DNA of 52,268 nucleotides from a virus (Duplodnaviria > Caudoviricetes): positions 1-52,268 of the IMG/VR virus record IMGVR_UViG_3300043777_000338. One strand, given 5' to 3'. The position numbers were made by a program, and so were the translations under genes. Shown one piece after another: positions 19,664 through 25,160 of this stretch. How positions within the stretch are numbered: position 1 is the first letter of the stretch; the number at the start of each line of letters is the position of its first letter. The notes below the pieces were generated by a model, which had not been told where the DNA came from, did not search any database, and was given only the letters and a program-made list of their open reading frames with translations.

Positions 19664-22600
19664 ATGTCTTATAAAGGAATCCAAACCATGATAACAAAAG
19701 CAATCAACCGTCTGTTAAATTTTTTCGCTATTAAAGTGCTTCGCCTGGTACTCATATTCGCACATTTATGTTTTTGTATTATTCCGTGTTACTCATCTGC
19801 TCTCCAGGAAGATCCGCCGACTCCTGTATATAAAGTTAATCTTACGAGGTTAGCTGAAAAGGAATTGGATCTCATAGGAGGACTTCAGCATCCTGGCACA
19901 CTTGTCATTCACGTTCCCTCTCTGACATTACCGAATTATATTGAGCTGACGAAGATCCGGCATCTTCATATTGTAACTGATACACTTTCTCTTCCTGCTG
20001 GATTAATGGCGCCAGAATTGACGCTTGAGGCTACTGGAAGATTATCATGTGGTACTTCATTATATGCTCCGGCAAAGATTGGATCCACGAGAGGGCCATT
20101 TAACCTGACGGCAGCTTCTGTTGATGCATCATTTGCGAAGATCTATGGGTTTGGTCCTTCGAAGATTAAGACGACGGTTGGTGCATTTCATCTTGGTTCT
20201 ATGGCTGCAAACGGATCATCTGGATCCTATTTAGTTATGAATGATAAATTCACAATGGATCTGGTGGGTGCATTTATTATGCAGCATGCTGAAGCGCGTT
20301 TTAGAGATGATTCAGAAATTGTATCAAAGACTGCTATTGATTTAACTGCAAGTACGATTAAGGGCAAAGGAAATGGAATATTTGATGCTCCCACAGTTTC
20401 ATTAAAACGTCCTCCTGTTACATGGACGATGGCTGGTTGCGCTCCGAGATTAGCTGTTTATGCGCATGTTTCACCCTATGAAAGTTTGATTCATCGAACA
20501 GGGGACATCAATTTTAGGAACGTTAATCAGCTTTATATTCAGGCCAGTTCAGTTCTTGCAGGAGGAAATATTTTTAGAACTGGTGCTATTGCGCATAACT
20601 CCTTTCCATATGGCGCCTCTTTAAACCATCCTTTAATTTTGCACATGCTTCAGATGTATCGAAATCCAAGTTGTCCATATCATGGTTGTGCAAATAATTT
20701 TTTTTCACTGGCTGAAGGAACCGCATATATATCGGCATTAAAACGCCAGTATGGTGCTTTTACGAGATTTAATCCTCAACAATATCTAGCATGCAATACT
20801 ATTATTGAGCCGCAGCTCATTGGAAACTCTGCTGGTTATTCAATTGTTTCTCCTCGTTTCTTAGGAAACGTTATTAACATGGAGCTTGGGAATTTCGCTT
20901 TAAGTCTTATCTCGTCTGCGAGGAAATTTATTTCTAGGGGTAATTCAGGGCTTATCTATAATCCAGAGTTAAAAAGAGAAGATGCGAAGAATGGTTTTGT
21001 TCAGATTGCGAATTTATCAAATGTATTTGAATTAGAGGAATTGAGATCCTCTTTTTATAAGAAGCATGTTTCTGGTGTTTATACATCAGAGCATCCGTTT
21101 GGAACAGCGTATCATCCAACGCCCCAGCAGGTAGTTTTCCTTGATCGTATGCCAACGCAGATGTTCTTTGATCCGCTTGCTAATATAGATATGGATTTGG
21201 CGATTCATTCTGTATTTACTCAATTAAGTGGAAAGACTTTCACTCAGGGATATAGCGGTACTAAATGGACTGAAAGTTTTTTCGAAAATGCTGAGCAATG
21301 GAAGAAGGAGAACAATAAGAAGATTATCTCTGCTCAGGACTTGCAGAAAGCCTTGGTGCCATTGCTTTTCTACAGCATTCGACATGTGGCTGGAAAGGAA
21401 CATGCTGATCTACATTTATCTGTGCCTTCACAGGAAATTGTACCTTATAGATCAGCCGGTGATATATATGCAGAAGAGGAAATTGATATTAAGACTCTTT
21501 CTGATTTAGCTCATAAAAACAATCGTTTAATTGCGAAAAAGAAAATAGACTCTATCTCTGAGCATGGTTCTCAATATCGTGAGACGACGAAATATAGACG
21601 CCATGGAGAAAGCTCCTATCAAGATTTTGCAGCACCTCAACAGCAATTTATCTGTCTTGAAGGTCCTATATTCCAGAGCGCTGGAGCAAACCTCTCTAAC
21701 ACTGGCGTTGGCACATTTGCGCGCGGATCAGTTACAATGCGCGCTAAGCATGGAACAATTCAAAATCTTCCTCTTGAGTTGAATGGTTTTTCTTCTGGTA
21801 AAAGATGGACACATAAAACTGTAACCCATTTCAATGGAACAATTTCCTCAACCGACGGAGATATGCTTCTTTCTTCCAATCAAGATAATACCTTGGCTGG
21901 AACTGATGTTTCTTCAAAAGGTCCTATTGTTATTTATTCTCGATCAGGAAAGGCGATGGTTCTGACTACCATTTCTGAAGATGAATATAGGTTTCGCAAA
22001 AATGAGAAGAACTTATTTTTTACGAAGTCTAAGGATAAGGGTCATATAGAGCATGTTGCGAAGATGCCAAATCTATCCTCTGAGGCAAAAGTTGTTATAT
22101 ATGGGGGCAACGGTTCATTTGTAGAATATCCGGCAGGGAAGGGGCTTCCGGCATGGACGCAGGATTTAAGAAATGCGAACTTTATCCCTGTAGACGAAGT
22201 TCATGAGAAGTGGAACCGGAAGTCATTTGAATTTACACCTCAATTTAAAGCTTTAGTTGCTACAGCTACAAATCTAGCTATTCCTGGCTATGGTAGTATC
22301 CTTGCATCAGCAGCTGTAACAGCATTGATGGATGCGAAGGGCGATCTTAGAAAAGCTGCGAAGAAGTTTACAAAGCCTCAGAACCTACGACGACTTGCAG
22401 CAGATTTAGCTGTGAAATATGTAACTCAATCTATTGGCGCAGATGGTTTTTCTAATGTCCTTACTGATCGGATAAAGAATGAAGCTATTAAGGCTGGAGT
22501 TAGATCTGCAACTTCTGTATTTATCGATCATGAAAAGCCGAGGGATGCTGCGCTTAATGGATTTAAAGGTTTTGTTGCAGACGTTGTGTGTGGTGAAATG

Positions 22601-23539
22601 TCCGCTAAAATCGGACAGTCGAAAGGGGCGCTTGGCGATTTTGGTAATATCCTTCATATAGCGAATGGTGCACTCCATGGGACGATAAAAGATCGTGATC
22701 CAGTCGCTGGTATGATTGGTAGCTTTATTGGAGAGAGTGGGGCAGACGTATTCGATTCAGAAGATGCCGGTAGGTTGTCTGCGGCGATAGCTGCATTCGT
22801 GACTCGACAGAACATATCGACTACTAATGATGCTGCTGATATTGCGGTTAAGAATAATCATGCTCATCTGTTAATGGTTTTGCCTGAGCTAGTATTGCCA
22901 TTGTTGGCAGCTGGTACTGCTGCTGTTTCAGCGCCGATAGCCGCTGCCATTGTGGCATTAGCTCCAACAAAAATGGGTAATGGCGATCTGGTTGATTGGT
23001 ACGCAATAGAGCAAAATAGGGGAATACGATTTGATGCTCCTCCATCTAGAGAATCTATATTCTTTACCCCAGCGCATCATTCAGGACCATCGACTTACTT
23101 TACGCCTGTTCCTGCCTATCGTGGAGTCATGAAGGAAAGTTTTCCGGTTACAACAAGTGTACGTCAAATATTGTATACGCCAATATCAGAAAAAGAGTAT
23201 TCGATTTTTAGCACACCCATTTATCAAAGAGAAGTTTCAATGTTCAACTTTGGGTTTAGGGGATCAAGGGGTTTTGAATTAAAGAATCCTCCATATCAAA
23301 AAACTAGGAATGTGCCACAAACTATTAATGAGAAAGAGTTTTCGGGACACGTTTTGGATCAAATGCAAAATAGAGGATTGATGCCTTCTGTTGTTGAACA
23401 TGCTATAAATTATGGTAATATTTTCCATACTAGAGATAAAACTATAGGATATTATGATATAGAAAATGATTTGCGTGTCATTGTAGATAGAGAATCGGGA
23501 AGAATTGTTACAACTATACCAGGAAAGCCAAACCAATGA
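19664..23539 (+). CDS. CdiA/TpsA-like polymorphic toxin (haemagglutinin-like body, DUF637-like region, VENN-like AVKNN, C-terminal predicted RNase)
   Basis: ATG 19664 behind GGGAG, signal-peptide-like N-terminus, beta-helical Gly/Ser/Thr repeats, VHEKWNRKSFEFTP...KGDL, AVKNN at 22844-22858, tip FSGHVLDQMQNRG...VIVD..SGRIVT. The next small ORF overlaps its stop codon. Confidence 0.8.
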   Translation: MSYKGIQTMITKAINRLLNFFAIKVLRLVLIFAHLCFCIIPCYSSALQEDPPTPVYKVNLTRLAEKELDLIGGLQHPGTLVIHVPSLTLPNYIELTKIRHLHIVTDTLSLPAGLMAPELTLEATGRLSCGTSLYAPAKIGSTRGPFNLTAASVDASFAKIYGFGPSKIKTTVGAFHLGSMAANGSSGSYLVMNDKFTMDLVGAFIMQHAEARFRDDSEIVSKTAIDLTASTIKGKGNGIFDAPTVSLKRPPVTWTMAGCAPRLAVYAHVSPYESLIHRTGDINFRNVNQLYIQASSVLAGGNIFRTGAIAHNSFPYGASLNHPLILHMLQMYRNPSCPYHGCANNFFSLAEGTAYISALKRQYGAFTRFNPQQYLACNTIIEPQLIGNSAGYSIVSPRFLGNVINMELGNFALSLISSARKFISRGNSGLIYNPELKREDAKNGFVQIANLSNVFELEELRSSFYKKHVSGVYTSEHPFGTAYHPTPQQVVFLDRMPTQMFFDPLANIDMDLAIHSVFTQLSGKTFTQGYSGTKWTESFFENAEQWKKENNKKIISAQDLQKALVPLLFYSIRHVAGKEHADLHLSVPSQEIVPYRSAGDIYAEEEIDIKTLSDLAHKNNRLIAKKKIDSISEHGSQYRETTKYRRHGESSYQDFAAPQQQFICLEGPIFQSAGANLSNTGVGTFARGSVTMRAKHGTIQNLPLELNGFSSGKRWTHKTVTHFNGTISSTDGDMLLSSNQDNTLAGTDVSSKGPIVIYSRSGKAMVLTTISEDEYRFRKNEKNLFFTKSKDKGHIEHVAKMPNLSSEAKVVIYGGNGSFVEYPAGKGLPAWTQDLRNANFIPVDEVHEKWNRKSFEFTPQFKALVATATNLAIPGYGSILASAAVTALMDAKGDLRKAAKKFTKPQNLRRLAADLAVKYVTQSIGADGFSNVLTDRIKNEAIKAGVRSATSVFIDHEKPRDAALNGFKGFVADVVCGEMSAKIGQSKGALGDFGNILHIANGALHGTIKDRDPVAGMIGSFIGESGADVFDSEDAGRLSAAIAAFVTRQNISTTNDAADIAVKNNHAHLLMVLPELVLPLLAAGTAAVSAPIAAAIVALAPTKMGNGDLVDWYAIEQNRGIRFDAPPSRESIFFTPAHHSGPSTYFTPVPAYRGVMKESFPVTTSVRQILYTPISEKEYSIFSTPIYQREVSMFNFGFRGSRGFELKNPPYQKTRNVPQTINEKEFSGHVLDQMQNRGLMPSVVEHAINYGNIFHTRDKTIGYYDIENDLRVIVDRESGRIVTTIPGKPNQ

Positions 23540-23811
23540 ATTTTTTAGAAAAGGCAAGAACGTTGCATGAGTCTATTCATAATATCTTAATTAATGAATG
23601 GGATCCAATTGGCGTGAATATATTTCCACAAGCTAATGATGAATATGACATGTATATTCCAGAAATTTACAAAATGCTTATTCACAGAAGACCAAAGCAT
23701 GAATTATTCGATTATCTATGGTGGGTTGAGACAGAACGAATGGGATTAAAAGGAAATCGACAACATACTGATAGAGTTGTCGATGATTTAGAAAAATTAA
23801 TAGCACATTAG
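23536..23811 (+). CDS. Putative cognate immunity protein
   Basis: ATGA overlap with the toxin stop; WDPIGV...DEYDMY motif (DUF1871-like). Confidence 0.65.
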   Translation: MNFLEKARTLHESIHNILINEWDPIGVNIFPQANDEYDMYIPEIYKMLIHRRPKHELFDYLWWVETERMGLKGNRQHTDRVVDDLEKLIAH

Positions 23812-23837
23812 TTTAAATATATAACAGAGATATCAAA

Positions 23838-25049: not shown

Positions 25050-25058
25050 TTAATAGAA

Positions 25059-25114
25059 TCGACTTTCTCTACTCCTGTTCCCGCGTTTCGTGGAGTAATG
25101 AAGGAGAGCTTTCC
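25059..25114 (+). pseudogene. Relic copy of the toxin pre-tip linker
   Basis: 47/56 nt identical to 23090-23145; encodes STFSTPVPAFRGVMKESFP versus STYFTPVPAYRGVMKESFP; no start codon. Confidence 0.85.
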
Positions 25115-25133
25115 TGCTGTCGGGGAATATAAA

Positions 25134-25160
25134 GGCGACTGCTACAGGTCGCCCTTTTTT
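25134..25160 (+). terminator. Terminator closing the toxin-immunity operon
   Basis: ggcgac-N8-gtcgcc followed by CTTTTTT, between convergent genes. Confidence 0.7.

Follow-up and report, generated by a model that had tools for sequence, protein, structure and literature searches.

What does a temperate soil phage do with a large CdiA-like toxin, and how could such a protein leave the cell that makes it? The question is raised by the window analyzed here, a stretch of 52,268 bp that comprises the whole IMG/VR virus record IMGVR_UViG_3300043777_000338 and in which a toxin gene and five small open reading frames (ORF1 to ORF5) form a cassette at positions 19448-25163. With direct terminal repeats, a CheckV value of 100% and an integrase gene, the window is the complete genome of a temperate tailed phage from soil, and the cassette is thus phage-borne, as an earlier note made from the letters of the DNA had held. 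Also as described there, a protein of about 1290 amino acids (aa) with a signal-like N-terminus and an AVKNN motif is followed by five co-oriented small ORFs and a terminator: the protein has 1291 aa, a hydrophobic segment at aa 14-47 and the motif at aa 1061-1065, and a hairpin at 25134-25153 closes the series. We consider it likely that the cassette forms an accessory unit complete in itself (a 'moron') within the phage genome, in which a polymorphic toxin and its immunity genes arm and protect the lysogen in inter-bacterial fights. The features of the cassette are as follows.

19448-19489, plus strand: upstream hairpin (GCCACCGC ... GCGGTGGC) followed by T7, read from the sequence
19482-19577, plus strand: tandem repeat of a 12-bp unit, CTTTTTTTATAT, in 8 copies (TRF score 118, 79% matches)
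19664-23539, plus strand: toxin gene, 1291 aa (P0001), its ATG preceded by GGGAGA (ribosome-binding site)
19664-19804, plus strand: N-terminal signal-like region of the toxin, aa 1-47, with a long charged n-region, hydrophobic LVLIFAHLCFCIIPC and YSS/AL (Kyte-Doolittle windows >1.6 at aa 14-47)
19889-20593, plus strand: first beta-helix, aa ~76-310, with a TPS/FHA-1-like fold (AlphaFold2, AF2, model)
20855-21433, plus strand: central alpha/beta domain, aa ~398-590, where conservation within the family is strongest (AF2 predicted local distance difference test score, pLDDT, mostly 83-97)
21461-22063, plus strand: second beta-helix with long beta-hairpins, aa ~600-800, FHA-2-like (AF2 secondary structure)
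22238-22858, plus strand: helical pre-toxin region (DUF637-like), aa ~859-1065, ending in AVKNN at nucleotides (nt) 22844-22858 (Pfam, AF2 helical bundle)
22862-23248, plus strand: region between the VENN-like motif and the tip, with a hydrophobic stretch at aa 1067-1101 and a Pro/Thr-rich linker at aa 1102-1195 (hydrophobicity)
23249-23536, plus strand: toxin tip, aa 1196-1291, a predicted RNase domain of BECR fold near DUF4258 (AF2, Foldseek, Pfam)
23536-23811, plus strand: ORF1, 91 aa, putative cognate immunity protein of the tip, overlapping the toxin stop by 4 nt (ATGA)
23838-24128, plus strand: ORF2, 96 aa, DUF7710 family (PF24819, E 5.5e-39)
24125-24454, plus strand: ORF3, 109 aa, YxiG-like family (PF24711, E 1.3e-7, 32.3 bits against a cut-off of 27)
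24491-24727, plus strand: ORF4, 78 aa, with no Pfam, NCBIfam or PHROG match and Atlas matches below the usable level
24759-25049, plus strand: ORF5, 96 aa, a conserved small unnamed family (22 homologues of 88-163 aa, E 1e-29 to 7e-14)
25134-25153, to 25163 with the T-run, plus strand: terminator-like hairpin GGCGAC...GTCGCC followed by CTTTTTTATT (terminator scan)

The exhaustive search for relatives, in which toxin aa 92-1291 served as query at E ≤ 1e-3, retrieved 867 proteins, so that the toxin ORF is not a product of chance. Among 150 retrieved non-self relatives, 120 carried the tip, 30 carried the body and none carried both. The tip lay at most 12 aa from the C-terminus in 119 of its 120 carriers, the lengths of which ranged from 73 to 5026 aa. 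RHS repeats were recognized in four of eight tip-bearing proteins scanned (in one of them together with PT-HINT and PT-TG) and DUF637 in two, and the tip of one Rhs protein (P0003) was 48% identical (40/83 residues). The tip is a mobile toxin module shuffled among many unrelated scaffolds, and the occurrence of one toxin domain on unrelated scaffolds is a trait by which polymorphic toxins are recognized. The earlier note had given this tip a length of about 85 aa (SGHVLDQMQNRG...GRIVT); the string is present within aa 1227-1285, but the conserved domain, aa 1196-1291, is slightly longer at 96 aa.

The scaffold, for its part, swaps tips exactly at the VENN-like motif. P0004 (1283 aa), the closest scaffold relative, was aligned by BLASTP with toxin aa 1-1065 at 41.4% identity, and the alignment ends exactly at AVKNN/AIENN, downstream of which the two proteins are unrelated; such a stop reads as the recombination signature of polymorphic toxins. 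N1064 of AVKNN was invariant in 15 of 15 sequences of the body family, nine of which matched DUF637 at E ≤ 0.05 (best 8.3e-10), two weakly PT-VENN, one a Tox-HNH-HHH tip (2.3e-21) and one weakly MafB. The family thereby shows what is expected of CdiA, i.e., a pre-toxin region with a VENN-type motif that bounds a variable tip, with DUF637 below cut-off in the toxin itself, and the assignment to the DUF637/VENN (CdiA-like) type of polymorphic toxins made in the earlier note is borne out. Between motif and tip, a second protein (P0016) has the same layout, namely AFENNF, hydrophobic stretch, linker and tip, and the segment aa 1067-1195 is a candidate membrane-entry domain.

Linkage of tip and immunity gene was assessed in 80 metagenome loci chosen solely for encoding the tip. 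In 69 of them, a homologue of ORF1 (E 5.5e-37 to 1.9e-6) stood directly 3' of the tip on the same strand. Genetically, ORF1 and the tip are tied to each other, and the role of ORF1 as the cognate immunity protein, for which the earlier note had named ORF1 or ORF2 as candidates, is strongly supported by this co-occurrence; an immediately downstream immunity gene that co-varies with the tip is another trait of polymorphic toxins. The ORF1 family, for which Pfam has no model, shares the motif EWDPIG..PEAQDEYD.Y...LWWLETEHMGL. By tblastn, ORF1-like sequence was detected in 35 plasmid records (Sinorhizobium, Rhizobium, Burkholderia and others), and at the one plasmid locus inspected, in Burkholderia gladioli, the ORF1 homologue follows an RHS toxin gene.

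The further small ORFs had been counted as part of a five-gene immunity array. This stands for ORF1 and gains ground for ORF2 and ORF3, which belong to families tied to toxin loci, while for ORF4 and ORF5 the array is read from position only. ORF2 is a probable orphan immunity gene: among the plasmid homologues of DUF7710, one lies directly after a VgrG-DcrB-RHS toxin of the type VI secretion system Rhs kind on a Rahnella plasmid. No DUF7710 member was detected in 301 sampled genomes of the phylum of one genome holding a body relative (G003), a result that is uninformative since control genomes were equally silent, and the name 'DUF7710' was not found in the open-access literature searched. 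ORF3 is likewise a probable orphan immunity gene; literature naming YxiG included, by title, nothing on immunity, and yxiG of B. subtilis presumably lies in an LXG-toxin region. ORF4 and ORF5 are perhaps immunity genes as well. No Pfam family was recognized in the 22 members of the ORF5 family, the Atlas gave no usable lead for ORF5, and ORF3, ORF4 and ORF5 had no tblastn match in plasmids. No homologue of ORF2 to ORF6 was detected at any of the 80 tip loci (E ≤ 1e-3) or in L001-L008 (E ≤ 1), which fits orphan immunities directed against other toxins. Orphan tip fragments were not seen between the small ORFs. ORF6 (91 aa, 25639-25914, plus strand) lies between the cassette and the terminase gene and bears a faint resemblance to ORF5 (BLASTP E 0.028; hhalign probability against the ORF5 family 44%).

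With respect to activity, the tip is predicted to have a BECR fold. Its AF2 model (pLDDT 81.6) consists of a short two-stranded hairpin and two helices packed on a four-stranded sheet, and Foldseek matched it best to the C-terminal toxin region (CT) of CdiA from E. coli NC101 (5i4r and 5i4q; E 8.8e-4 and 1.0e-3; TM 0.54-0.59), then to colicin D, HigB and RelE. The scores were middling, the hit lists were mutually consistent and drawn almost entirely from the BECR superfamily, and identity to the matched chains listed was 4-19%. The expectation of a BECR, colicin E5 or DUF4258-like domain expressed in the earlier note was thus met by the fold, with DUF4258 remaining below cut-off. An alignment of 43 tips revealed H1229 and D1232 as invariant and Q1233 and R1237 as nearly so, within the conserved motif SGH.LDQMQ.RG. 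The tip is probably an RNase, and more specifically may well be a tRNase, the active site of which would include H1229 and D1232. ParE members of the BECR fold poison gyrase rather than cut RNA, and the fold alone therefore does not fix the activity of the tip. When nine tip-bearing relatives were compared with DUF4258, one exceeded the Pfam cut-off (P0016, 26.2 bits) and six scored 20-22.5 bits; from these scores the tip would be a neighboring rather than a core member of DUF4258. In PMC11630599, DUF4258 is listed among the CdiA-CT types of E. coli with the annotation 'tRNase (?)'. Matches of the tip profile to designer pentatricopeptide proteins in the PDB (E to 3.8e-19) were discarded as an artefact of a short M..GI.PSVV motif repeated 8-10 times at 2-8 bits each. 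A related tip (36% identity) also ends a 307-aa protein encoded directly after a tail-fibre-like gene on a GC-rich viral contig (L006, 2259-5138), where two small ORFs follow that are alike by eye and unlike ORF1; here the tip domain may serve in connection with the virion.

The borders of the cassette agree with an independent unit, since it is bracketed by the hairpin with T7 upstream and by the terminator downstream. The hairpin at 19448-19489, omitted by the consensus terminator scan for its loop of >8, probably stops transcripts coming from upstream and so separates the cassette from the preceding genes. The 12-bp array lies between this hairpin with its T-run and the start codon, forming the 5' leader of the toxin gene, and could be a variable regulatory leader; contigs of one soil-metagenome run (X3) showed small indels inside the array. 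The public gene call (P0002) starts the toxin 24 codons further upstream, giving 1315 aa.

Following this, we propose that the prophage would express a beta-helical toxin that is exported via Sec, and that the outer-membrane step would depend on a host protein of the Omp85/TpsB type recognizing the N-terminal beta-helix, which resembles a two-partner-secretion (TPS) domain, or would be bypassed via phage lysis. Release of the C-terminal region in a target bacterium would occur, as in CdiA, through the conserved Asn of AVKNN, the hydrophobic and Pro-rich segment (aa 1067-1195) would help the tip across the inner membrane, and the BECR tip would cut RNA. In the producer or lysogen, ORF1 would bind and block the tip, and ORF2, ORF3 and perhaps ORF4 and ORF5 would serve as orphan immunities that shield the lysogen from the toxins of other strains. 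The shuffling of the tip, the swap point and the tip-immunity linkage are observed; the activity, release, entry and export of the toxin are predictions.

Several results weigh against the cassette being a toxin-immunity moron of this kind. Both domain assignments stay below the Pfam cut-offs in the toxin itself, DUF637 with E 0.0095 and 16.2 bits against 26.6, and DUF4258 with E 0.0023 and 18.6 bits against a gathering cut-off of 25. An ORF1 homologue is missing from 11 of the 80 tip loci despite at least 625 nt downstream in each. Modelling of the complex between the tip and ORF1, one of the pairings suggested in the earlier note, favored ORF1 over the controls (score 0.60 against 0.00 for the best of three controls) but gave only a weak pass: of 80 solved complexes, 58 reached the mark of the tool, as did 2 of 110 mismatched pairs, counts that are approximate since own alignments were used, and scores of ≤0.60 at the mark were seen in 7 of the 80 solved complexes and in both passing mismatched pairs. 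The tip-ORF1 runs agreed in at least 66% of contacts, with a partner pLDDT of at least 88. Only one of two plasmid contexts of DUF7710 adjoins a toxin, the other lying beside an ankyrin-repeat protein, and no link of ORF4 or ORF5 to toxin loci was found by plasmid tblastn or in the Atlas. In the five genomes with body relatives (G001-G005), neither a related portal nor an ORF1 homologue was found. Finally, no outer-membrane exporter gene was found in the phage, which leaves delivery unexplained.

The scaffold bears on the question of delivery. From its hydrophobic profile, the toxin N-terminus is likely an extended Sec-type signal for the route across the inner membrane; the N-terminus of P0004 is similar, and several other family members have hydrophobic N-termini. 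The AF2 model of aa 40-1105 had an overall pLDDT of 72 and placed a disordered insert between the first beta-helix and the central alpha/beta domain. The latter is possibly the receptor-binding region; query aa 310-660 hold the best stretch for most body relatives, and identity with P0004 reaches 84% at aa 551-600. In the second beta-helix, pLDDT was high at aa 600-710 and <50 across much of aa 713-819, the hairpins being of low confidence, and aa 736-836 weakly matched a TpsB-linked TpsA (BLASTP E 3e-5). Foldseek returned no match to the 1066-residue body model at E ≤ 1e-3, the best PDB hit of the whole toxin by sequence (E 0.25) was noise, and neither the toxin nor ORF1-5 matched NCBIfam or PHROG. 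In the model, the domain order recalls the CdiA layout given in PMC11630599 (TPS/FHA-1, receptor-binding, FHA-2, pre-toxin, VENN, CT), from which the roles of the parts are inferred.

Members of the body family have 1283-3254 aa. The genome-borne ones occur in metagenome-assembled genomes (MAGs) of 1.1-2.3 Mb, one of Candidatus Dependentiae, two of Alphaproteobacteria and two titled only as bacteria; at the loci examined these chromosomal relatives are not in prophages, and no body relative was found in viral contigs. Two of the chromosomal relatives (L001, 6588-12140; L002, 5736-12044) share a C-terminal domain of no clear family (motif ...LFSCECGADPDGIAQQL...) after LENDI and LDNDV, respectively, which may be another effector type, and a further body-family member (P0009) has a weak DUF4347 match.

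The first alternative concerns export. The toxin could be a divergent contact-dependent inhibition (CDI) toxin of the two-partner-secretion type, with a degenerate TPS domain, exported and displayed by a host-encoded TpsB/CdiB, the phage supplying only the 'A' and 'I' components; we regard this as possible and somewhat doubtful. The CdiA-like domain order of the AF2 model speaks for it. The predicted N-terminal beta-helix superposes on TPS domains and may share their fold. The statement of the earlier note that no clear TPS domain exists holds for sequence, where no signature appears in 15 members, and not so clearly for structure. Pfam TPS (Haemagg_act) matched neither the toxin nor, at E ≤ 0.05, any of the 15 family members, and a motif of the NP..VIINEV...NPNGI type was not seen on reading the toxin, no pattern search having been run, whereas it is visible in the TpsB-linked TpsA of G005. 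The transporter itself, correctly reported as missing from the phage, gave no match to PF03865 (ShlB) anywhere in the complete genome; the same search recovered TpsB in two bacterial genomes (E 1.5e-85 and 1.7e-80), which makes the negative meaningful. Full TpsB is encoded in two of the five genomes holding body relatives (G003 and G005), a point in favor of host-encoded export, but in both it adjoins a classical TpsA of its own, which shows the usual motif, on a separate contig. The remaining three, MAGs in which absence is unproven, yielded only Omp85-like frames of ~887 aa with weak matches, and no TpsB was present among the 10 neighboring ORFs scanned at three of the five chromosomal body loci (L001-L003).

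Alternatively, the toxin might belong to an undescribed family of compact CdiA-like proteins that lack the TPS signature, possess a conserved N-terminal leader of their own, occur in small-genome MAGs, reach the surface without a dedicated TpsB and are moved by temperate phages with tips swapped at the VENN-like motif. We put this forward tentatively; P0004, the tip of which differs, is encoded on a contig of 53.3 kb, about as long as the phage. If true, phages would carry a contact-type weapon from host to host, and export across the outer membrane by a new route would be indicated.

It is also conceivable, although we consider it unlikely, that the toxin is released like a bacteriocin, i.e., that it accumulates in the periplasm or cell, is freed when some lysogens are induced and kills non-immune neighbors, with ORF1 protecting sister lysogens. 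Such a concept is discussed for prophage toxins in PMC5576092; moreover, an exporter was found neither in the phage nor linked to the relatives, and the packaging genes follow shortly after the cassette in the same orientation. It is, however, bracketed by its own hairpin and terminator, and two opposite-strand genes (25162-25557 and 25923-26300) intervene before the terminase gene, the first of which encodes a lipoprotein (minus strand, lipobox signal, phrog_6823). Furthermore, no lysis genes were identifiable nearby, none being nameable among 11 small or medium ORFs scanned, and the chromosomal scaffold relatives are, as noted, not in prophages at the loci examined.

A very improbable target is the eukaryotic host cell. 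Symbiont phages such as APSE and the WO phages carry 'eukaryotic association' toxins, and for a similar role here one could cite the small genomes of the body relatives, Candidatus Dependentiae included, and the several relatives with other C-terminal domains after the VENN-like motif, among them the weak DUF4347-like match. The tip and immunity family, on the other hand, is common on Rhs-type toxins of soil and free-living bacteria (the 69 of 80 loci and the 35 plasmid records), which favors a bacterial target, and the extra immunity-like genes make sense only against bacterial toxins. That the toxin is instead a virion protein, a tail spike, fibre or ejected protein by which the toxin enters the cell being infected, a mode that has been proposed for MuF toxins, is scarcely credible: the 307-aa protein behind the tail-fibre-like gene of L006 offers a parallel, but the toxin has an N-terminal signal-like sequence, no PHROG match and no MuF domain, it lies outside the structural module with opposite-strand genes between, and its body relatives are chromosomally encoded, with lengths of 1400-3200 aa, and none was found in viral contigs.

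The toxin-immunity moron thus preferred is embedded in a temperate tailed-phage genome, the main features of which are the following.

4439-5695, minus strand: tyrosine integrase (family search)
8003-10294: primase, followed by an AAA_24 protein and a YqaJ-type recombinase
26314-27978: large terminase
28727-31150: portal
39824-40879: SU10-type adaptor
43902-45707: tail fibre with Peptidase_S74 chaperone
49795-51303: DNA-ejection protein

The structural module comprises 26314-52268 and 1-2524, and the nine ORFs of at least 499 aa in the phage encode the toxin, the primase, the terminase, the portal, the tail fibre, the ejection protein, virion proteins and a 716-aa protein. The last of these (374-2524), which is Ala/Gly-rich, contains hydrophobic stretches and matched no family, stands at the end of the structural module and looks like an internal or ejection protein. 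A phage-borne tRNA-Asn (GTT) is located directly past the terminase gene (27981-28056, minus strand). Beside the integrase gene, 2670-3344 and 3594-3986 (minus strand) are two probable accessory genes for a signal-bearing small outer-membrane beta-barrel (OMP_b-brl, 3.7e-9) and an Hsp20-family protein, of which the barrel points to a diderm host. Upstream of the cassette, about 800 nt at 18650-19450 contain no convincing ORF and no Rfam family match, with a GC content above that of the neighboring early genes and a negative GC skew in the 19-20 kb bin.

No phage near-identical to the window was present in the INPHARED collection. P0004 is encoded on a 53,304-bp contig and the ORF5 homologue P0169 on a 53,173-bp contig; both are near the size of the phage (52,268 bp), and these may be sister phages. 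Contig pieces from two soil-metagenome studies, with a possible source run left out, mapped onto the cassette region: those of run X2 were identical to it, 23289-23745 included, and those of run X3 were 95-99% alike. In X3, ~22.0-24.7 kb was uncovered, and since no contig bridges this gap it gives no evidence of a different tip.

Toxin-immunity cassettes govern the coexistence of strains, and infection by this phage would confer a weapon and shields in one step. In addition, ORF1 and its homologues make up an immunity family without a name that goes closely with a widespread DUF4258-like tip, a clean pair for biochemistry. The scaffold keeps the toxin-release module of CdiA and has lost, or never had, the two-partner-secretion signature and the partner gene, which makes it testable by what route a large toxin with a beta-helical body arrives at the surface when no exporter is dedicated to it, and whether lysis by the phage can replace secretion.

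Compared with known systems, the toxin is closest to CdiA, with which it shares the beta-helical body, the DUF637-type pre-toxin region and the VENN-like motif with its invariant Asn at the swap point. As in CdiA, the variable C-terminal region comprises a possible entry segment and a predicted nuclease, and an immunity gene directly downstream is followed by more immunity-like genes; CdiA-CT of E. coli NC101 was also the best structural match of the tip, and DUF4258 tips occur on E. coli CdiA according to PMC11630599. By contrast, cdiB/tpsB is missing from the element, Pfam TPS and Fil_haemagg repeats are missing from the sequence, the motif is AVKNN instead of VENN, and the protein is phage-carried and has 1291 aa. 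Typical CdiA proteins have roughly 3000 aa or more. The toxin would work like CdiA/CdiI but is no CdiA member, and it is not filed there because it lacks both the TPS sequence signature and the partner transporter.

The signal-peptide-only 'T2SS' class, exemplified by MafB, described by Zhang et al. (2012; PMC3482391), has a Sec signal, no transporter gene beside the toxin, a shuffled C-terminal toxin, immunity genes and orphan cassettes; the system resembles it in a likely Sec signal, the lack of such a transporter gene, the shuffled tip, the immunity genes and possible orphan cassettes. The toxin differs in lacking the MafB N-terminal domain and in its body, which like that of filamentous haemagglutinins is a long beta-helix carrying DUF637. 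The predicted tip fold is shared with the BECR RNase toxins (colicin D/E5, the RelE/ParE superfamily and CdiA-CT of NC101 and Kp342), from which the tip family is distinguished by its peculiar SGH.LDQMQ.RG motif and by the low identity given above. A phage-borne DUF637/VENN toxin was not found by title or abstract start among the open-access papers listed. With the MuF toxins, a family of phage-borne polymorphic toxins recognized by Jamet et al. (2017; PMC5576092), the cassette has in common a polymorphic toxin, a downstream immunity gene, a temperate phage and a proposed role in lysogen competition; MuF toxins are head-morphogenesis fusions thought to be virion-borne, whereas here, as the earlier note had rightly said, the toxin is no MuF fusion (no match by Pfam or PHROG), and it carries a putative signal for secretion and is encoded away from the structural genes. 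Taken together, a polymorphic toxin-immunity moron on a temperate phage is a known kind of system, of which the present cassette, with its DUF637/VENN toxin, is a variant.

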